Below, piece by piece: positions 2-10,431 of a stretch of 40,766 bases of DNA (position 1 is its first letter; each line of letters begins with the position of its first letter). A program made the translations under genes and the position numbers. Under the pieces are notes generated by a model that ran no database searches, had not been told where the DNA came from, and saw nothing but the letters and a program-made list of their open reading frames with translations. This DNA comes from a virus (taxonomy: Duplodnaviria; Caudoviricetes). The stretch covers positions 1 through 40,766 of IMG/VR virus record IMGVR_UViG_3300044580_000088; one strand, given 5' to 3'.

Positions 2-604
2 CGTTCCCAGGCTATTGAGGGCCGATTCGATTGACGGGATCGTATTGGCCACCAGATCGTCGCGCAGGGCGTCGGCGCTTGCCGGCGAGTCTCCAGGGTC
101 CGTGATGTCATGGGTCGTGGATGCGTCTGCCTCGTGGGCTTGTTGTTTGAGCTTGAGGCCGTCCGAATCTACAGCGATCCCGTAGTTTGGCTTCAGCTTC
201 ACGCTGAGGCCATTGCTGTCCAGAAGGATCCCGTGGTCTGCGTACACCTTCGCCTTGAGCCCACCTGTTCCAAGGACGAGGCCCGGGTCGGTGTCCAGAA
301 GAATCGACGTCCCATTGATGTCAACCTGGAGTCCTGAGTTAGTAGCCAGCTTGATCGAGATCCCTGTAGTGGATCCGACTTGCAGCCCACCGGTTTGGCT
401 GAGCTTGATGTTGAGATATCCGGACGCCTTCTCGAGTCCATACAAAATGTTCAGCGTCAGGACATCGTCGGACCCGAAGCTGAAGACGTCACCAATCTTG
501 GCGCTCCCGATCCCATCCTCGAACATCTCGGTAAGGATGATCTTGACCTTCGCGACGATGTCCTCTACGGTTTCCCCTGAAATCGGTACAGGCAGTTGCG
601 GCAT
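2..604 (-). CDS. Fibre protein with triple beta-spiral-like repeats (3' end runs off window)
   Basis: Not in the ORF track. ATG overlaps the TAA of the giant gene (TAATG) and the frame is open to the edge: MPQLPVPISGETVEDIVAKV...LNIKLSQTGGLQVGSTTGISIKLATNSGLQVDING...SALNSLGT. Confidence 0.8.
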   Translation of the reverse strand, partial: MPQLPVPISGETVEDIVAKVKIILTEMFEDGIGSAKIGDVFSFGSDDVLTLNILYGLEKASGYLNIKLSQTGGLQVGSTTGISIKLATNSGLQVDINGTSILLDTDPGLVLGTGGLKAKVYADHGILLDSNGLSVKLKPNYGIAVDSDGLKLKQQAHEADASTTHDITDPGDSPASADALRDDLVANTIPSIESALNSLGT

Positions 605-3600
605 TATTCGTACAGTCCTTTCAGTTCATTGGCTAGGCCCCTCATTGGCTTGGAAGGCCTCCTCGGGCGGCCCCGCTCGCGCAGGGCTCCGGCAAGGTTT
701 ACCTGGAGTTGCGGACGGCCTTCTGTTACGACCCGGGCGTTCCAGGCCTCGACCTCATTGCGAACAGCGTCCATTTCCTTCTGGTTGCCGTCCCGCTGGG
801 CGTTGGCATATCGGCTTGCCCACTTCGCCCTCTTGGCTGCCACGAATTTCGTAAGGTCTTCGATCTTCTCGTTGATGTCCCAGGCCTTTGAGCTGCTCAG
901 GGGCTGGAATCCTGCGGCCTTTCCAATGGCTTCCGGCAGGGATATTCTCCTGGCCTCCGATTCGCCGGGCAACGTCAGCGGCTGGCCGCTGATGGTATAG
1001 GCGCCCTCCCCGTAAAGCCGTGCCGCCGCAACCGCATTCGCGATGAAGCGCGGTGCCATGGCCTCCACGGCTCGGGACGCATCCCCGTACTGGTACGCCT
1101 CAATGGCCTTGGCCGGATCGTCGATGAGTATCGAATATGGCACGCCGACCAGGGATGCAACGGGGTTATCCGGGTTGTGAAACTCGATGGAGAGCGACCC
1201 GCTGATATCCACTCCCAATGCGGCCGGTGCCCCATACACCACGAGATCGCGCCAGAGGTTCCGGTTGGCTCCCGTCGATTCCGGCACCATCTCGCGTGCA
1301 GCACTTTCCGGATCCCGGCCGAGCATCCGCCTGGAGATCCGGCTTATTGTGCCAAAGAACGGCAGGCTCGAGATCCCCCCGAGGATCAGCAGGGCCAGCA
1401 GGGATCGCATGATGGCGCGGTATCCTCGTCTCTGCTTGGCCATCCATCCCAGCAACTGCAGGTATTGGTGCGAAAAACTCTGCAGAGCATAGGCAGATCG
1501 TCCAAACTTCGCGCCCACGCTCGGCCCTCTGGCCCAGGTCGGCAGGTTTGCCTTGCCCATGACGAAGTGCGTATCGTTGACGATCTCCTCGGCGTAGGCC
1601 TTGGCCTTTTCGTAGGGCCAGGGCTTCCCCTTTTCCATCCCGTACCGCTTCAGCGTGTCCGGGTTCACGATCTTGCCGTCCTTGGCGATGCGGTACGCCG
1701 CGAGGCCAGTGGAGATACGGTTGAACCGCTCCGGCAGGGCCATGGTCAGCCCCAGGACATCAACGGCCCGGTTTAGCGTGTTGCCGATCCGGGTACCGAT
1801 TCGCCCCTTGATCTCCTGGTTGAACTGGTCCGATGCCACGCCCTCGAGCACGAGCTCAGTAACGACCCTGAGTTCGTCTGCGGAGAGCCGCTTGCCCTTG
1901 GTGATGGCCCCGACAATAGCTTTCCGCGCTGCCGAGAGGTACATCGCGCCGGCCCAACGGGCATCGATTGACATGCGCGGGACGGCGGCAACCACGTTCT
2001 GCGTCAGGTTCACGACGCCGCTCTTGATGACGCCGGCAAGATACTTGACGTAGATCGCGGTGCGAAGCGTGTCGGCCGCCGCGTCCAGGCGATCCGCATT
2101 CGACAGGGCGTCCCGGACATAGTCCGAGGCGTACTTCCAGCGCCGCGGCTCCTTCTTGGCCCGCAGGTCGCGGAGAACCTCGGAGTGCTTCCTGGATGCC
2201 TCCATCTTGGTCAACCAGCCGTTGAGCCCCGCGAAGTATTCGTGCAGGATCCGCTTGATGTCGCGCTTCTCGTGTCCGGGAATGTCGCGGCGCCGGATCA
2301 TGTGGGCCCCCCATCCCCTGGACTTGATGACATCCGCAATGGCTTCTGGCATGGCCTTCTCAAAGAGCTGTCGAGCGGCCGGATCCCCGACCCTCTCGGC
2401 CGCGGCGTAGATGACCTGCTCCATGGCCTCGATGGGAATGGGGTAATCGTAGATTTCGTCAGGAAGTTTCGTGACAGGGGCAATCTTCCATTCTACGGCC
2501 TCGGGGTACTGAGGCTTGATCTTCGCCAGGAGCCTTTCTCCCCTGGTGCTTACCTTGGGCGTGTCGTAATAGTGGCTGCGGTAGACAATCTTTCCCTCCG
2601 CATCATAGCCACGGATGGACCAGTTTCCGTAGCGGACATGGGGAAAGTAGTTTGGAATCTGCCCGATGGACTTCCGGAGACGCTCGATCACGGAGTCCTC
2701 GATGTCCTTCATGCGACTCTGGGCGTTGAATGCCTTGGCCAGAGAGCGGTCAAGGCCTTTCCGCAGGGCGACATATACGTCCGCGATGTCCTTGTATTTG
2801 GTCTTTTCCAGGGCCGCCTTCATCTGGTCGAAATGCTCCTGGTTGAGCGCCCTGATTCCCGGACGCCCCTCGGCATTTTTCCCCCAGACGAAGCGGGACG
2901 CCGTCACGCCCTGCAGTTGCTTGCCGTCGAGCTTCCAGATCAGCTCGATCAGGAGGTCGAGCTTCTTGCCGCGGAGATCGAACACGGGCTTGACGGCCTC
3001 GAGATCCTCGTGAATGGCCTTTGTTCTCGACTTGTTGCGCTCCAGCTCAATACTGACCAGACGGGCCAGATCCTCCTCGCCCGGTTTCTTCGACAAAAAC
3101 CACGGGTTGTGCCACAGCTCCTCGATGACAGATATGTCCTTTTGGGGAGCGACGGTAATGCCGCGCTTGATCCGGTTCCAGGCCCTGAGCAGCGAAGTTC
3201 CGGACAGCGGGGCCCCCTCTGCGGCCGGCTTGCGGGTGGCATACTTGGCCGGAGGATCCAGCTCCAGCAGCCCGTCCGATGCGGCGCGTAACACCTCGTC
3301 AACAATCGTAACGTGCTCCTTGGGCTTGATGGCGCTGCTCACCAGGAGCGACGTTGCCAGCTCAACCTGCTCAACGGGGCTTTTCTTCAGGAAGCTTGCC
3401 GAAACGTCTACGAGGCCTGATCCGCTCGGACGCGCCACGCCCTGGAGAATCTGAATCGTCTGGGGGTAATAGTCTCCCAGGTCCGGCTTGCCGAAGCCCT
3501 TTTGCTTGGCGTTTTGCGCCATCGAAATCCCCTTGCGCCCCCTCGTTCCAGAGTTGCCGAGCCTGAGGAAGCACTGAGGGCATCCCATCTCGCAGAACGG

Positions 3601-6600
3601 CTCGTCGGTGACGCCAACAATGGGGGCGCCGGCGGCGTCCGGGTAGGTGAGATGCTGGCAGTTTCGGCAGCTCGGGCATCCCTCATGGAACAGGTCGCAG
3701 TACTCGATGGGCCCGGGCTCGATGAGATCCAGCACGGCCGCATCCAGTTGCCGGCTCGTCGGCCACCACCAGGTGCCCCCGCGCTCCTCGATGAACGCCT
3801 TCTCGTCTTTAAGGGACGAGAGGTAGGCCTCGGCCTCTTCTCTCGTTTTAAATCCCTGCAGCCCTTTTTTGCGGCTGTTGACGATGGTCAGCACATTGTA
3901 TGAGCTCGGCCCGTACAGGTTCTTTGCCGTATCCCATCCGTTGGCCCGGAACAGCGCGGCCATGGCATCCGGCTTGCGCGGAACCCATGGCGTCCAGTCC
4001 ATCCAGGTGCGCGGGTCTTCGCCGCGGGGACGCGGGTTTTCAATCCACCAGTCACCGAATTCCGGATGCTTGGGGTCAGTAGGAACGAAGTTCGTGAAGC
4101 GGGCCAGGGACCATGGATGCTTTGCCCGGTACGTCGTGATCAGGACGTGCGCCCCGATCTCGCGGGCATAGTTGATCGCCTTTGCAACGGCCCTCGTTAC
4201 CTCCGGGGATCCGTTCAGCACGGGCTTGACCCGCACGGCCCTGATGACCGAGTCCCAGCTCGGGTCGGGGCGCTTGAAGTTTGTCAGATGGGGATTTCCC
4301 GTTACCATCAACGGGTAGGAGAGATTGGCCGGGCGAGGTCGAGAGAGGTCGGGTTGAGTTATCGGCAGATTCAGAAATACTTGCGGTTCTAGCCCGCGAG
4401 CGGTTTCAGGAATGGCCGTCCTCTCGACCCCTCCCTCGATAAGTCGCCCGGTTTCTGCGGATGCCTTGCCCTCTCTTATAGCAGGATAAAGGATTTTGTC
4501 AAGCCTTTCTCTGCGGATCCCGGTGACCGCCGGCGTATTGAGCACGCCCTCGCGGATGACGACCTGGGACGGTTCGATCTTCGGCAGAAGGGCAAAGTTG
4601 CCGATCTTGCGGATCTCATTGTATTGCTGGAACTTTTCAACGGCTTTGCGGATGCCTGCCTCTGACACGCCAGCGCGCCTGGCTTGGCGCACGAACTCCT
4701 GGGCCATGGCCTTGGTGATGGGCCTTGAAGCCATAATGGCGTCAGTGATGGCAGGGACGCTGACCTCTTTTTCGCCGCTGAAGTTTCTGATCGCGTAGTC
4801 TGCCGCATCGCGGAAGATCGTCTTGCCGGCCTCGGTGGCGTCCCGTCGTGCGGTCCGTTCCCAGATCTTTCCAGAGCTGACCTTGTCGTAGACGGTCCGG
4901 AAGCTGGGGAAGAAGAATTCCTTCAGGCGCTGGAAGAAATTGCGGATGCGCTGGTAGAGGTTCTGCAGCCACGTCTGGCGTTCCCGCCTCTCTCGCTTCC
5001 CGGCCTGCTCGTGCGCCCAGTTGCCGTAGTCCTCTGCCGCGGCCTCCTCGGATCCGAATTCTTCCTCGAGGCGCTTTCGCTCCCCGTCTGTCATTACGAG
5101 GTCCCAAGCCGCATGGAATGCTTCGTGGTGCGTATCGGCGGGGGAGGAGAGATCGGTGTAGGTCAGGATCCCGTGGGGGCCCACTTGGCGCCAGGATGCG
5201 GCGGCCACCACGCCAGGCCGCAAATCTTTGCCGGTTGCGGCCTTGTAGTCCACGGGGTTGATGATGATCTTGCTTTTCCAGTCCACCAGGACCTTGGTCC
5301 CGTTGGGCATGGTGAGCATGAAGGCCCAGCGCGGGCCCCTCTCCGTTTGGAGGAGCTCGGCAGGGCCTATCTCTGCGGAAGGGAATGCGGCCCGGATAGC
5401 CTTGTGCGCGGCTTCCTGGCTTTCGGCGATGCTGTCCGGCAGCGGATTGCGCTCGATGATCCCGATGATCTCGTTCAGGATCCTGTCGAGCGGGTCGATG
5501 ATTCCGGGCAGTTCGGTCTGGACGTAGCTTACAGGAGTTGCTTGTCCGGCGGACTCTTCATGTATTGTCGCATCTCCGCCAGCGCCTCTCTCTGGTGCTG
5601 ACGGAGCTTTTCCTGCTCGAGCTCGCTCAATAAGCACGTCTCTGTTTGCGTTGATCGTCCTGGCTTCGGACTCGGTGAGGCCTTCGGGCGGGACTTTTTC
5701 CCCGTAGATAGTTTCAAGGACGGCTGGGAGATCATGTTTGAAATTCTCCTTCAGTTTGCCGAGGGTGTCAAGGGATATTTTCAGGTTCGAGCCGAATGTG
5801 CCCTGGGCCATGGCGTGGATCCCGATGACGGTGGCGCCGTTGTTCTCCAGGTATCCTTTCAGGCCGGCCAGGGTGGATCCCGTGGTCGTGACATCATCCA
5901 CAATGACGGCCAGCTCGCCGGTGACCTTCCCGCCGAATTCGGGCTGGCGCATCAGCCGCTCCATCGCCGTGGCGCCGGTATGATGCACGATGTTTTTTTG
6001 GATGACATCCGTATTCACCGGCCAGCCCGTCAATTCGGAGATATAGGCGGCCATGGCCAGGGGGATCTGGTTGATGCCGCCGGCCTCGATCGCGTTAACG
6101 GGGTAGACCACGACGCTACGGCCCGCATAGGCCATGGCCAGGGCCCGGACCTTTTCGGCGTTCATCAGGTCCATGGCAAGGTTCGCTGCCGCCTTGCGAT
6201 CCCCGCTCTTGGCCGCCTCGTAGTCCTTGTGGCCGCGCATCTTGTTGTAGCCGGTGTGGATTACGGCCTTGGCGGTCCGGTCTGTCCAGGGCGTGCGGGT
6301 TGCGTACTTTTCCGCTTTTGCGGTGGCTCCAGGGACCTCAAAATCCCCCCGCAACGGCATCACTATGGCCTTCAGCTCGCCATCGACGCGGAATTGCACG
6401 GGCTTGCTGAATTGGTTTTTGCTGTCTTCGACTTGGCTGACCCGTGCGTCCGGGAAATGGCTCCGGATTAACTTGAGGTAATCTGCATTGATCGCGACTG
6501 TCTTGCCAGCAGCATCGGCGAAGACGGCCTGCTGCGAAGCCGGCGACTCCACTCTCGCCATGACGTAATGCAGCTCCCGTCCTGGCTCCTTGGGCAAAAC

Positions 6601-9600
6601 AGCCGCATAATTCGGCGGGTCGTATTCTTTCCGCTCCTTCGCGACATGCTCTCCCGCCATTTTGGCTATTTCGTCATCTGTCTTGTCCGGCTCGCATTTG
6701 CGGAAGAATTTTGCGGCTTTCTGCTCCTGCCTGCGCCAATAGCCATCGCGCAGTTTCTTCGCGATCTTCTCGTCGATGATGAGCCAATGGCCATTTGACG
6801 CATACGGTCCGCTCTTGTCGCTGCTCAGTCTCAGACTTTCGTCCCAATCTCTATCAACCGTGTACTTCTTGGCGAGATCGGTGACCTCCTTTTCGGAGAT
6901 CTCCGTGGAGATGATCGGTCCGTCCTCAGCCAGGCTTCTTTTTTCGGCCGGAGTCAAGGCCGAAAAGTTTTTGCCGTGCTTTTTCTGGGCGAGATCGTCA
7001 AGATCGGAACGGCTGAAGTTCCGCGCCGGCTTCTGCTCGGCCTGCTTTTTAGCCTTGGCGGCCGGCGCTGGCGCCTTGGCGACATCAATCGCCGTGTCCA
7101 GGCTGACGCCCTTGCGGAGCTGCTCGAGGGCGACTTTGCGCCGTTCACCGCTCGGCACGCCCCTTCTGTCCAGGTATGCAGAAACAGCCACGAAATGGTC
7201 CTTGACCGTGACGTAGTCGGAGCCAAGGTTCATCCGGTCGGATGCGATCCCGGCGCCGATATGATCGGCAACCTCTTGGGGCAGCCCAGGGAATTCCTTC
7301 TTGACAGACCCGGAATACGTCCGGGCCCACTCCTCGAGTTCGACCTTGGTGCGCTCGAAATCAGCCATCTCGGGCTTTTTTGTTTCCGCTGGACCGGCCC
7401 ATTGATTGTTTGATTTCAGTGCTTTTGTCGTGCCAATGGCTTTCTCGATAGCCTTGTCTCGAGAGTATTCAAAATCTATGAGCGTCGATTTTTCTCCCTT
7501 GCTGTCAATGACCGGATACTTGATCGTGTAGGATGCTTCTGCCCCTTTCCCTCTCTCAATAATGGTAACGCCGGCCGGGATCTGCGGATCTTCGATAACC
7601 TTTCCGCCCGCGGCATCCTGCCGACGGATTTCCTCTTTGCTCTCTGGTCCCGCTTTCTTTTCCGGCATCGGAGAGGCGGGGACTTTTTTGGTCCGGATCC
7701 CTCTCTCCCCAGAAGGCCCCTTGCTACCTTCGATCTTCTCCTGCATGGCCCTGGCGTCGCCGCCGGCGTCAGCTATTTCATTGTAGGTCGCCCTGTAAAC
7801 ATCCTGCAGAGCATCGAGCTCATCGGCCAGGCGGTTCCTCTTTGCTCCCTTTGCTGCCTCAACGGCCTTGATCAGTCCCTGGATGGCTTCCCACCGGCCC
7901 GCCTGCTCTGCCTCTGCAGTCGCCATCAGGTCCTTCAGATTGTCGCCTTCGTATCTGGACCCACGCCTGGCATTCTGCCCTCTTCCCTCCAGGAAGCGCT
8001 CAATCTTTCCGAGCTTGGCTTCCAGGCGGCTGATCTCCGGTTGACGCTTGGCCATCTCAGATTCAAGGACATGCCTCTCCTGGGCCCTGGTAAGGTTCGC
8101 CTTGCCGTGTACGGCCCTTTTTCCCCTATTGCTGCTGGCGACGGCATGGGCCCTCGTCTTGAGATCCTCGATCTTCTTCCGGATCTCGTCAGCCTGCTGC
8201 CGCAACCGCTCCGCGTGCTCCTCTTTCCCCTTCTCCCGAGCGGCCTTCTTCTGCTCATCGGTCAGTCCGCGGGGGGCCGGAGGCGCAGGCGTTGTTTCCC
8301 GTGAAACCTCCGGCGCTTTTCTGGCCAGGATGTTCTGAACGACCTTGAGCGTCTCTTTCTGCGGTGTCGGGATGGAGACTTCCGGCAGGGAGCCAAGGGC
8401 TTCTCGCTGGCCCTCAGCGAATTGTTCTTCGGAGATCCTGTCTTGGATCCCTTTCCTTGCGGCCCCGCCGCCAGCGATCCACTTTGCGAGAGCCTCGGCC
8501 TCCTTTTTCTTCCCGGCGGCCATGAGTCTGCTGATCTGGAGCCGCTCGGCTGCGTTGGGCTGTACCCTGCCGACAGATGCGGCCAACCCCTCCTCGTAAG
8601 CCGCCCCCTGGGCGGAAAGTTTTCGCCCAGCCTCAGCCTCTGGCCCCTCGATGAGCCTGCGGCCGGCCGGGCCTTCCACCATTCGGCGCCGGCGCATCAG
8701 TTCGTCGAGTTTGGCCTGGTGCTCCGGGGAGAGTCGCGCCCGCTGCTTGAGGATGAAGTCTTTGGAGTAGGGCTCGCCCTTGAGCGTGAAGGGGGCGTCA
8801 GCCATGGTGAACCCGCGGTCTACGCGGGAGCGCTCCTCAAGGGACTGCCGCATGGATTCAAGCGGCTGATGCGTCCATCTGCGTTCCCGTTCCGGGGCCA
8901 GGGGGGCCTCGGGAAACACCTCGTCGCGCAAGGGGTGAATGACCTGCGGCTCCGGTTCGGCGAGACGCTTGCCCCGCACTTCAGACACTCTGGCCCTGGC
9001 AGGCCCCATGTGCTCGGCCGTCACCCTCGCATAAGGATCGATGTCCAAGGCCCGCTTGAGCTGGCCCCACCACGGCTTGTCGGCCACCTTGACGAGCTTC
9101 GTTGCCGGCAACTCGATGGTGAGCCCGTTGAGCACGGCGTTCCGCGCCTGCCCCTCGGGGATGCCGATGTCCTGCATCATGTTGTAGAACTCGGCATCAT
9201 GGGCTTTGGATCCGCGGGTGAAGTAGTCGCGCAGCCGCTGGGCGGGGATCTCAATGGTAGCCCCAGGAGCGACACTCTCCATCCTCTCCCGGAGGTACTT
9301 TTCTTTAAATGGCTCGCTCATCTTGTCCCAGCGGGCGCCCAGCTTGCGTCCGGCAAAGCCCAGGGCCGCGCCCTTGGCGACGAAGTCAATGGCTTCCGTG
9401 AGCGCCACGACGTTCTTGCCGGCTCCTTCCGGCAGCAGCTCTGACAGTCCGCGCTGGTTCAAGAATTCGTAGGGCTGGCCCGTGGCGGCGGAGATGGCTG
9501 CAGATTCGGCCTCGCCAAGTCCGGTGAAGCCGGCTATGGCCTTGAGCGTGGGCCATATGTGTGACTTGAGCGCACCAGCCGGACCCGTTGGGATCGGCAG

Positions 9601-10431
9601 GATCCCACCGGAAATGGCGGCATTCATCAGGAAATTGTAGTAGTCGGACTCCTTGACATCTCTGGCTCCGAACACTTCCTTTGTCAGGCGCTCTCTCAGT
9701 TCCGGATCAGCTTCGATTTCTGATCTCCTGCGTCCAGTAGCGGCCGCCAAGGCATCGATGGCGCTCGCTTGTGCCCTCATGGCACCTTGGTCCTGGAAAA
9801 GGCTCTTCAGCTTGTCCAGGGCCGTTTCAGGAGGAGTCGCACTAATAGCCTCTTGGGTGGTTGGCGGAGTGGTGATCGTCTGGAGGCGCTGTAACAGGGC
9901 TCGCTTCACAACATCCTCTGCCGATACCATGCCGTGCTTGGTGTCATAGGATACCGTCGCGATGGTGTTCTCGCCGCCCATGAATCCAAGGATCCGATTG
10001 ATGTAGTTCTCCGTCTCCACGGGCATGACGCCATGGTTGACTCTCTTCTGGCCGGCGTTGTAGGCCCACAATCCCTTTTCGACGCTGCCGCCGTTTTGTT
10101 CGATTAGTTTGCTGAGGTATCTCGCCCCGGCTAAGACGTTTTCGGATGGGTCATGCGCGTTGGTGACGCCGAGCTCCCTGGCCGTTTCTGGCATGATCTG
10201 CATGAGACCAACGGCCCCCTTTGGCGAGACGGCATTCGGATTGTAGCCTGATTCGGCTCTGATGACGGCGTGGATTAGTTCCGGGTCAAGCCCAGTCTCC
10301 TTTGCGGCGTAGTTGACGATTCCGTTGAAGGGACGTCCATCTGAACTTTCGTTGGCCCCGGATCCATAGATCTCCTCGTCTTTGACTCCGCGCCGGCGGA
10401 GAACTTCGCTGACGATATCAAAGCTGGACAT
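604..10431 (-). CDS. Giant polyvalent internal virion/DNA-ejection protein (SLT, clamp-like, PRTase, zincin peptidase, Cys-cluster domain, helical C-terminal domain)
   Basis: 3275 aa. SLT motifs AVIRAESGYNPNAVSPKGAVGLMQIMP and AYNAG; PRPP loop VIVDDVTTTGST; HHEAFH; CEMGCPQC. Last gene of the ejection cluster. Confidence 0.9.
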   Translation of the reverse strand: MSSFDIVSEVLRRRGVKDEEIYGSGANESSDGRPFNGIVNYAAKETGLDPELIHAVIRAESGYNPNAVSPKGAVGLMQIMPETARELGVTNAHDPSENVLAGARYLSKLIEQNGGSVEKGLWAYNAGQKRVNHGVMPVETENYINRILGFMGGENTIATVSYDTKHGMVSAEDVVKRALLQRLQTITTPPTTQEAISATPPETALDKLKSLFQDQGAMRAQASAIDALAAATGRRRSEIEADPELRERLTKEVFGARDVKESDYYNFLMNAAISGGILPIPTGPAGALKSHIWPTLKAIAGFTGLGEAESAAISAATGQPYEFLNQRGLSELLPEGAGKNVVALTEAIDFVAKGAALGFAGRKLGARWDKMSEPFKEKYLRERMESVAPGATIEIPAQRLRDYFTRGSKAHDAEFYNMMQDIGIPEGQARNAVLNGLTIELPATKLVKVADKPWWGQLKRALDIDPYARVTAEHMGPARARVSEVRGKRLAEPEPQVIHPLRDEVFPEAPLAPERERRWTHQPLESMRQSLEERSRVDRGFTMADAPFTLKGEPYSKDFILKQRARLSPEHQAKLDELMRRRRMVEGPAGRRLIEGPEAEAGRKLSAQGAAYEEGLAASVGRVQPNAAERLQISRLMAAGKKKEAEALAKWIAGGGAARKGIQDRISEEQFAEGQREALGSLPEVSIPTPQKETLKVVQNILARKAPEVSRETTPAPPAPRGLTDEQKKAAREKGKEEHAERLRQQADEIRKKIEDLKTRAHAVASSNRGKRAVHGKANLTRAQERHVLESEMAKRQPEISRLEAKLGKIERFLEGRGQNARRGSRYEGDNLKDLMATAEAEQAGRWEAIQGLIKAVEAAKGAKRNRLADELDALQDVYRATYNEIADAGGDARAMQEKIEGSKGPSGERGIRTKKVPASPMPEKKAGPESKEEIRRQDAAGGKVIEDPQIPAGVTIIERGKGAEASYTIKYPVIDSKGEKSTLIDFEYSRDKAIEKAIGTTKALKSNNQWAGPAETKKPEMADFERTKVELEEWARTYSGSVKKEFPGLPQEVADHIGAGIASDRMNLGSDYVTVKDHFVAVSAYLDRRGVPSGERRKVALEQLRKGVSLDTAIDVAKAPAPAAKAKKQAEQKPARNFSRSDLDDLAQKKHGKNFSALTPAEKRSLAEDGPIISTEISEKEVTDLAKKYTVDRDWDESLRLSSDKSGPYASNGHWLIIDEKIAKKLRDGYWRRQEQKAAKFFRKCEPDKTDDEIAKMAGEHVAKERKEYDPPNYAAVLPKEPGRELHYVMARVESPASQQAVFADAAGKTVAINADYLKLIRSHFPDARVSQVEDSKNQFSKPVQFRVDGELKAIVMPLRGDFEVPGATAKAEKYATRTPWTDRTAKAVIHTGYNKMRGHKDYEAAKSGDRKAAANLAMDLMNAEKVRALAMAYAGRSVVVYPVNAIEAGGINQIPLAMAAYISELTGWPVNTDVIQKNIVHHTGATAMERLMRQPEFGGKVTGELAVIVDDVTTTGSTLAGLKGYLENNGATVIGIHAMAQGTFGSNLKISLDTLGKLKENFKHDLPAVLETIYGEKVPPEGLTESEARTINANRDVLIERARAGKAPSAPERGAGGDATIHEESAGQATPVSYVQTELPGIIDPLDRILNEIIGIIERNPLPDSIAESQEAAHKAIRAAFPSAEIGPAELLQTERGPRWAFMLTMPNGTKVLVDWKSKIIINPVDYKAATGKDLRPGVVAAASWRQVGPHGILTYTDLSSPADTHHEAFHAAWDLVMTDGERKRLEEEFGSEEAAAEDYGNWAHEQAGKRERRERQTWLQNLYQRIRNFFQRLKEFFFPSFRTVYDKVSSGKIWERTARRDATEAGKTIFRDAADYAIRNFSGEKEVSVPAITDAIMASRPITKAMAQEFVRQARRAGVSEAGIRKAVEKFQQYNEIRKIGNFALLPKIEPSQVVIREGVLNTPAVTGIRRERLDKILYPAIREGKASAETGRLIEGGVERTAIPETARGLEPQVFLNLPITQPDLSRPRPANLSYPLMVTGNPHLTNFKRPDPSWDSVIRAVRVKPVLNGSPEVTRAVAKAINYAREIGAHVLITTYRAKHPWSLARFTNFVPTDPKHPEFGDWWIENPRPRGEDPRTWMDWTPWVPRKPDAMAALFRANGWDTAKNLYGPSSYNVLTIVNSRKKGLQGFKTREEAEAYLSSLKDEKAFIEERGGTWWWPTSRQLDAAVLDLIEPGPIEYCDLFHEGCPSCRNCQHLTYPDAAGAPIVGVTDEPFCEMGCPQCFLRLGNSGTRGRKGISMAQNAKQKGFGKPDLGDYYPQTIQILQGVARPSGSGLVDVSASFLKKSPVEQVELATSLLVSSAIKPKEHVTIVDEVLRAASDGLLELDPPAKYATRKPAAEGAPLSGTSLLRAWNRIKRGITVAPQKDISVIEELWHNPWFLSKKPGEEDLARLVSIELERNKSRTKAIHEDLEAVKPVFDLRGKKLDLLIELIWKLDGKQLQGVTASRFVWGKNAEGRPGIRALNQEHFDQMKAALEKTKYKDIADVYVALRKGLDRSLAKAFNAQSRMKDIEDSVIERLRKSIGQIPNYFPHVRYGNWSIRGYDAEGKIVYRSHYYDTPKVSTRGERLLAKIKPQYPEAVEWKIAPVTKLPDEIYDYPIPIEAMEQVIYAAAERVGDPAARQLFEKAMPEAIADVIKSRGWGAHMIRRRDIPGHEKRDIKRILHEYFAGLNGWLTKMEASRKHSEVLRDLRAKKEPRRWKYASDYVRDALSNADRLDAAADTLRTAIYVKYLAGVIKSGVVNLTQNVVAAVPRMSIDARWAGAMYLSAARKAIVGAITKGKRLSADELRVVTELVLEGVASDQFNQEIKGRIGTRIGNTLNRAVDVLGLTMALPERFNRISTGLAAYRIAKDGKIVNPDTLKRYGMEKGKPWPYEKAKAYAEEIVNDTHFVMGKANLPTWARGPSVGAKFGRSAYALQSFSHQYLQLLGWMAKQRRGYRAIMRSLLALLILGGISSLPFFGTISRISRRMLGRDPESAAREMVPESTGANRNLWRDLVVYGAPAALGVDISGSLSIEFHNPDNPVASLVGVPYSILIDDPAKAIEAYQYGDASRAVEAMAPRFIANAVAAARLYGEGAYTISGQPLTLPGESEARRISLPEAIGKAAGFQPLSSSKAWDINEKIEDLTKFVAAKRAKWASRYANAQRDGNQKEMDAVRNEVEAWNARVVTEGRPQLQVNLAGALRERGRPRRPSKPMRGLANELKGLYE

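Follow-up and report, generated by a model that had tools for sequence, protein, structure and literature searches.

A ringless, clamp-derived module with a candidate peptide pocket inside a giant polyvalent protein of a tailed phage

Bacterial beta clamps (DnaN) close head to tail, with domain I packing against the first half of domain III across the dimer interface, and their T172-P242 region is built of a helix and strands (E. coli DnaN numbering is used for all clamp residues). Smaller and more open variants have been described in viruses. Excerpts of Kazlauskas & Venclovas 2011 (PMC3201878) list five shorter phage polIII-beta homologues that cover domains II and III, and portions of that paper and of PMC9690074 describe herpesviral UL42 and UL44 as clamp folds without a closed ring. 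Phage polyvalent proteins, in turn, are predicted to be delivered together with the DNA (main text of Iyer et al. 2017, PMC5512222). Here we describe a 162-amino-acid (aa) clamp-like module in a 40,766-nucleotide stretch of tailed-phage DNA (IMG/VR record IMGVR_UViG_3300044580_000088, positions 1 to 40,766; hereafter the window), a linear virus genome that is 88% complete. The module has no gene of its own but lies inside one open reading frame (ORF), 604-10431 on the minus strand, that encodes 3,275 aa. Predicted fold, profile comparison and motif order make it nearly certain that the module derives from a clamp and has lost the ring. It is composed as follows:

6346..6831, minus strand: beta-clamp-derived module, aa 1201-1362 (motifs, AlphaFold2 (AF2) model, structure and profile comparison)
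6772..6804, minus strand: beta hairpin YASNGHWLIID (aa 1210-1220), equivalent to the DnaN T172-L177 hairpin of domain II (model strands 10-12 and 16-19; column map)
6622..6771, minus strand: helical hairpin insertion (aa 1221-1270) replacing the remainder of domain II (model helices 21-46 and 52-69)
6589..6621, minus strand: linker DPPNYAAVLPK (aa 1271-1281), equivalent to DnaN 240-250 with P242, Y244 and V247
6502..6579, minus strand: two strands (aa 1285-1310) in place of DnaN ~254-312, without an equivalent of the first helix of domain III
6451..6501, minus strand: strand and helix TVAINADYLKLIRSHFP (aa 1311-1327), equivalent to the DnaN N320/Y323 helix; P1327 is invariant
6346..6402, minus strand: C-terminal hairpin PVQF...KAIVMPLR (aa 1344-1362), equivalent to DnaN S346-R365 with V360, M362 and P363; K1354 is invariant and specific to the module family

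A first-pass annotation of the sequence had picked out four clamp motifs within about 160 aa (YASNGHWL, PPNYAAVLPK, VAINADYL and PVQF...AIVMPLR), and we recovered all of them, in that order, in the 162-aa translation of 6346-6831; the E. coli counterparts (ATDGHRL, FPDYRRVLPK, GFNVSYV and YVVMPMRL) are likewise all present in the DnaN sequence that we fetched. We built an ordered four-motif score from 13 DnaN sequences, namely that of E. coli and 12 hand-picked from 40 listed plasmid-collection matches, with gap limits that were chosen once the module had been seen. On this scale the module reaches 55.1, compared with 8.9 +/- 5.9 for 100 shuffles (maximum 25.7) and 38.4 for the best match elsewhere in the giant protein. 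The best ordered match falls inside the module in 15 of 18 carrier proteins, although the first or third motif is off-register in some rows. In two further carriers the best match involves a second module copy, as their score drops when both copies are masked, and in one (P0017) it lies outside the module. Single contigs from three DNA runs (X9, X11 and X13; each possibly the source sample) read through the module with no mismatch, which makes an assembly artefact unlikely. Contigs from RNA runs also cover it; such contigs cannot show transcription.

AF2 folded the module with confidence from a 16-row alignment (predicted local distance difference test (pLDDT) 92.7, predicted template-modelling (TM) score 0.85); a single-sequence prediction at pLDDT 51 was discarded. 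In the model, a hairpin (residues 10-19) leads into two long helices (21-69) and a short one (75-78), followed by three strands, a helix (116-125) and three final strands. Searched with VIA-align against 48,161 chains, the model retrieved bacterial beta clamps at ranks 1-15, with Z from 8.3 to 7.0 over chain positions ~155-366; rank 10, titled 'Mismatch Repair Complex', was counted among the clamps on the basis of its chain length and aligned range. All of ranks 1-35 are clamp folds, with PCNA, another beta clamp and viral clamps following the first block, and the first non-clamp appears at Z 3.9. For E. coli DnaN (2POL) the comparison gave Z 7.6 and a root-mean-square deviation (rmsd) of 7.7 over 142 aligned residues, spanning 156-366. 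The top nine rows in BFVD are uncharacterised tailed-phage proteins of 154-228 aa, and the ESM Atlas returned similar viral clusters, in one of which 21% of members carry PF02767. A DarA_C identity, which the ESM Atlas also suggested, was rejected: P1 DarA, Hdf, DdrA and DdrB match neither the module nor the DnaN profiles.

Profile comparisons point in the same direction. In hhalign, the module family matched the 13 DnaN sequences at 91.5% (E 8.4e-7, over DnaN 316-366), E. coli DnaN alone at 4.8%, and seven stand-alone phage mini clamps at 95.6% (E 1.2e-8). The PHROG clamp family phrog_947 matches seven of 16 members and phrog_3007 matches five. Single-sequence searches are far less informative: identity to DnaN is 12-20%, and the window module found nothing relevant in Pfam (E<=0.1), NCBIfam, PADLOC, PHROG (E<=0.01) or the PDB sequences. 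A profile from alignment A1 gave a weak match to Thermotoga beta (E 0.031), level with quinolinate synthase, and a PF02768 search of the genome gave no match.

Where DnaN has three clamp domains over about 366 aa, recognised by Pfam beta_1/2/3, the module has 162 aa and no Pfam match. Domain I is absent, as the model aligns only to DnaN ~155-366. Between T172 and P242, family members have 49-74 aa that are predicted to be helical. The P242-N320 distance shrinks to 42 aa in the window and 32-47 aa across the family, versus 77-90 aa in DnaN, and this stretch of the model contains no helix, the first helix of domain III being absent. We take the ring contact of domain III to fall in the P242-N320 stretch. 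With domain I gone and this stretch, presumably the other half of the interface, both shortened and helix-free, a normal ring is excluded. The suggestion that the module is too short for a normal ring subunit thus holds, since domain I and about half of the P242-N320 stretch are missing from its 162 aa, and the module would be monomeric or form some non-ring assembly.

What survives of the clamp is most of the cleft between domains II and III. The window keeps T172 (as S), G174, H175, L177, P242, Y244, V247, N320, Y323, V360 (as I), M362, P363, M364 (as L) and R365. The earlier claim that the module preserves the peptide-binding pocket motifs therefore stands for most pocket-lining residues and fails for R176 and R246, which are lost, and for the Q-binding half, which is variable. 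In DnaN such residues line a pocket made up of a deep hydrophobic and a Q-binding subsite. Across 19 rows, the 15 pocket positions have a mean conservation of 0.43, compared with 0.19 for random sets outside the insert (p 0.0009) and 0.26 for a pool matched for hydrophobic, G, P, N and D residues (p 0.008). M362 is Met and P242 is Pro in 18 of 20 rows each, and both, together with L177, P363 and V360, are among the 12 most conserved columns. The deep hydrophobic subsite ranks high in conservation and H175, Y244, R246 and R365 rank low. A supplement legend of PMC3335792 names R152, T172, P242, V247, M362 and R246 as contacts of the inhibitor RU7; four of these six (T172, P242, V247 and M362) are kept or conservatively changed. 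The pocket probably binds peptides of some kind. Its preference probably departs from QL[S/D]LF, since the deep hydrophobic subsite has been preserved better than the Q-binding one. When the module (alignment A1) was co-folded with the C-terminal 30 residues of E. coli Pol II, both runs gave an interface score (ipSAE) of 0.18 relative to a mark of 0.32, a result that speaks neither for nor against binding.

The nearest counterparts are short stand-alone clamps encoded by other phages. A tblastn search with DnaN 135-366 matched 383 of 50,697 phage records. Among eight records hand-picked from 60 listed, mostly partial matches, seven are stand-alone genes of 172-224 aa and one is a full-length clamp of 354 aa; all seven mini clamps have DnaN ~254-312 deleted and keep R152 and R365. 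Examples of such short homologues are Bcep43 gp15, annotated in its record as 'Pol III b subunit fragment', TheodorHerzl bas14_0007, phiHSIC ORF2 and PHROG 3007. The module shares with the minis the lack of domain I, the deletion in domain III between the P242 linker and the N320 helix, and the order of the pocket motifs, in line with their close profile match. It differs in several respects. The minis carry the R152/L155 motif and match DNA_pol3_beta_2 (seven of seven, E<=0.01), whereas the module has no Pfam match; their P242-N320 distance is 19-20 aa rather than 32-47 aa; and only the module has the helical hairpin in place of the remaining domain II, lacks the DVRYYLNG motif and is fused into a giant protein of the virion block. 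The module either descended from such minis or was reduced independently. Compared with DnaN itself (2POL; PF00712/PF02767/PF02768), the fold of ~155-366 and most of the domain II/III peptide cleft are shared, while the length (162 versus 366 aa), domain I, the first helix of domain III, R176 and R246 are not. Structural matches to UL42 and UL44 are lower (Z 4-6); those proteins have two full clamp domains and a cognate viral polymerase, whereas the module is smaller and DnaN-type, and no polymerase was found in the record.

The same survey yielded several observations on the minis themselves. PHROG 3007 (190 positions), labelled 'RusA-like Holliday junction resolvase', matches E. coli DnaN (E 6.5e-24) but not the RusA encoded by the window itself: by sequence it is a family of short DnaN homologues. 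Several of the minis bear this resolvase label, which has propagated into RefSeq phage records (L027:1983-2522 and L031:679-1254). PHROG 12598 and PHROG 6615 also match DnaN. TheodorHerzl bas14_0007 (L025:2471-2989) and Bcep43 gp15 (L026:1977-2558) lie antisense in the head gene block, in a moron-like position, and because TheodorHerzl grows on E. coli K-12 it offers a ready test system for a stand-alone mini clamp.

The protein that carries the module has the architecture of a polyvalent protein, combining a transglycosylase, a phosphoribosyltransferase (PRTase), an HEAFH motif and a PLxRFG domain in one large ORF among late and virion genes, downstream of the terminase, major capsid and SU10 adaptor genes on the same strand:

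604..10431, minus strand: polyvalent-protein gene, 3,275 aa, at the downstream end of the structural block; predicted to be ejected from the virion
10033..10317, minus strand: N-terminal lytic transglycosylase (SLT), aa 39-133 (Pfam PF01464, E 4.5e-27)
6277..8334, minus strand: variable cassette holding the module, aa ~700-1385, where sister phages differ most
6832..7017, minus strand: upstream segment, aa 1139-1200, accompanying the module in several relatives, with no match to DnaN or the stand-alone forms
5641..6273, minus strand: PRTase domain, aa 1387-1597, immediately after the module (PF00156; phrog_22413, E 2e-39)
5503..5520, minus strand: QTELPG (aa 1638-1643), a weak look-alike of a clamp-binding motif in the linker after the PRTase
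5113..5127, minus strand: HEAFH (aa 1769-1773), an HExxH motif, likely of a zincin-like metallopeptidase (motif only)
667..2649, minus strand: PLxRFG domain, aa 2595-3255 (NF032893, E 1e-47)

Late-gene giants with a transglycosylase, a PRTase and HExxH, as well as the LPD38, ART-PolyVal and methyltransferase (MTase) domains found in relatives of the window protein, feature in the main text of PMC5512222, which contains none of the words 'clamp', 'sliding' or 'processivity'; an unnamed LPD of its supplement may correspond to the module. By gene position, N-terminal transglycosylase and polyvalent architecture, the giant protein is likely packaged and ejected with the DNA, although we infer delivery from an architecture whose delivery is itself a prediction in PMC5512222. 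Following the roles proposed there, the HExxH peptidase could release domains of the giant protein. No DNA polymerase or clamp loader was recognised among 31 scanned ORFs of the 88%-complete record, so host enzymes are likely needed. The phage also encodes a Hydrolase_2 endolysin, which together with the transglycosylase points to a bacterial host. Contigs holding the stretch come from sludge, digester and wastewater metagenomes.

A phmmer search over 1.84 billion representatives gave 16 matches, of which 15 were retained; P0012 was rejected as a BRCA2-repeat false positive. Eleven of the 15 relatives are 1,500-4,134 aa long; five carry LPD38, and others have ART-PolyVal, MTase or Zeta domains. 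Beyond the module and some 60 residues upstream of it, most have little in common with the window protein. Word-based searches turned up no relatives when started from the single module, and with alignment A1 they added only P0018 and P0019; Pfam LPD models did not match any of 16 module stretches. The helical insertion varies from 37 to 62 aa across the family and is its least conserved part. The upstream segment (aa 1139-1200) may belong to the same folding unit as the module. It is small and probably helical, has a G-K-x-F-x-x-L-type motif and precedes the module in many relatives; a reading of these 60 aa as the missing domain II helix was dropped, as no profile supports it. Two of the 15 relatives have two module copies. 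As for the shorter carriers (P0011, P0013, P0016, P0018 and P0019), the module occurs twice in proteins of 780 and 834 aa, and elsewhere it lies near the N-terminus of proteins of 211-442 aa, two of which have basic C-terminal tails.

Three sister phages (L016, L017 and G001) each have one module copy that is 50-58% identical to that of the window, versus 79-100% identity in most flanking regions. Their alleles agree with the window at 11-12 of the 15 pocket positions, as opposed to 68-81 of 147 others, and the proportion of nonsynonymous differences (pN, 0.26-0.35) is below that of synonymous ones (pS, 0.66-0.75). The cassette (aa ~700-1385) is swappable, and the sister modules in it are old alleles that purifying selection maintains. 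Within the cassette, aa 700-1100 differ in length and content among the sisters and may hold further effector domains. One sister genome, a near-complete 44-kb contig (G001:C14; L018, L023 and L024) colinear with the window, sits in a metagenome-assembled genome (MAG) labelled Methanotrichaceae, and the name of relative P0003 likewise derives from a MAG called 'Euryarchaeota archaeon'. We consider an archaeal host unlikely: the contig is colinear phage DNA with no chromosomal flank seen, and two peptidoglycan hydrolases are encoded, so that it is probably misbinned.

How might a phage use such a pocket? We tentatively favor, at a little under even chances, a ringless single-pocket module that is delivered by the virion and recruits host clamp partners locally. 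The giant protein, ejected with the phage DNA, would carry the clamp-derived pocket into the cell, where it would bind host proteins with clamp-binding motifs and hold them beside the incoming genome. The likely catch would be a host polymerase, ligase or repair factor that aids genome sealing and the start of replication without clamp loading; the same binding could instead disarm a clamp-dependent host factor locally, and the HExxH peptidase would possibly release the module. Domains of giant virion proteins arrive in few copies per cell and host clamps number in the hundreds, which makes a local recruiter more plausible than a bulk decoy, the other role raised by the first-pass annotation. 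More tentatively still, phages may have pared the beta clamp down, time and again, to a portable docking pocket that needs no loader; this family may be the virion-injected version, catching host enzymes or defence factors in the first minutes, with its partner tuned by allele swapping among sisters.

Several observations weigh against this proposal. Structure comparison gives mid-range scores (Z about 8, with an rmsd of 5-8 A), and since Z values of 7-8 by themselves are common with this tool, the weight rests on the uniform list of clamps. Of the comparison with DnaN that the first-pass annotation proposed, the clamp-type fold is borne out by the AF2 model and by VIA-align ranks 1-35, whereas Foldseek found no PDB match at E<=0.001, its best clamp row having E 0.2 and a TM score of 0.36. 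The N-terminal hairpin alone has no significant profile match. Within the pocket, R176 is hydrophobic in 19 of 20 rows and a gap in the remaining one, never Arg; H175 is retained in six of 20 rows, N320 in nine, R365 in ten and Y323 in 11; and the window has Ala in place of R246. For R152 no partner aligns clearly: an Arg stands 12-14 residues before the T172 position in 14 of 20 rows, versus 20 residues before it in DnaN. In one sister allele a Phe replaces V247 and could fill the pocket, and the invariant P1327 and K1354 lie outside the DnaN pocket residue set. Because the pocket-lining residues sit on core strands, the fold alone could account for part of their conservation. Finally, an archaeal host, if real, would weaken the case.

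Some of these points would fit a repurposed scaffold, in which the clamp fold is kept, the cleft no longer binds peptides, and the function is structural or has moved to a new surface made by the inserted helices or by D1220, K1354 and P1327. Family-specific P1327, K1354, I1218 and D1220 are indeed among the most conserved residues, and the loss of R176 and R246, the frequent loss of H175 or R365, and the V247F allele would be expected. We nevertheless regard it as rather improbable: five pocket residues (M362, P242, L177, P363 and V360) are in the top 12 columns, the pocket set exceeds matched random sets, and the insert is the least conserved part. Another reading turns the pocket inward, as a self-docking adaptor that binds a peptide of its own phage, for instance QTELPG (aa 1638-1643), and thereby helps the ejected protein to fold, stack or be released. 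QTELPG is kept in the window, L016 and L017 and appears as QAELPG in P0002, two proteins have two module copies, and the specificity side of the pocket has drifted. Yet the motif stays constant while the module is swapped among sisters, and clamp-motif look-alikes are not enriched in 18 carriers (1 vs 3.7, 3 vs 3.4 and 6 vs 2.8 expected for three patterns), which leaves this idea quite improbable.

A decoy against host defence, intercepting a clamp-binding toxin, sensor or repair factor (a SocB-like toxin, MutS/L or Hda) at entry, also seems unlikely, if worth keeping in mind. The few virion copies would titrate weakly against hundreds of host clamps, expressed stand-alone minis would suit the role better, and our literature search found no clamp-binding anti-phage factor. 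What commends it is the setting in the most variable cassette (sister modules 50-58% identical, flanks 79-100%), which is common for conflict domains, together with the varying Q-side residues; moreover, the main text of PMC5512222 places counter-defence domains in polyvalent proteins, and an excerpt of PMC10002423 reports that SocB binds the clamp. Least probable of all is a UL42-like ringless processivity factor, with a basic helical face on the DNA and the pocket tethering a polymerase. The modules have a median isoelectric point (pI) of 9.0, versus 4.6-6.7 for the matching part of the 13 DnaN sequences, and excerpts of PMC3201878 describe a high pI as a mark of non-ring viral clamps. Other 160-aa windows of the same giant proteins are equally basic, however (median pI 8.8; 52% at or above 8.5), and three of 19 modules have a net negative charge. 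We therefore rejected the basic charge as a sign of DNA binding, as it does not exceed the background of the giant proteins.

The literature has included short beta homologues from phages since 2011; our literature search, with most subscription papers outside its reach, returned no report of clamp-derived domains embedded in virion or polyvalent proteins. The phage attacks on the clamp that are known work by blocking the pocket of the host protein, as does Gp168, which itself appears in the VIA-align structural results. If local recruitment proves right, the phage would be using the mirror strategy, with a pocket copy of its own that acts ahead of all phage gene expression. This would also assign a role to one of the unannotated domains of polyvalent proteins, and the question raised in 2011 about the function of short phage beta homologues could be put to experiment, with coliphage TheodorHerzl as one possible system. 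In addition, a non-ring pocket of 160 aa would serve as a convenient reagent in the search for clamp partners.

Elsewhere in the giant protein we noticed a Cys-rich stretch (aa ~2050-2370; window ~3300-4300, minus strand) of the form CxxxxxGCxxCxxC...CxxGCxxC. It has no family match and resembles a degenerate radical-SAM or Fe-S motif.

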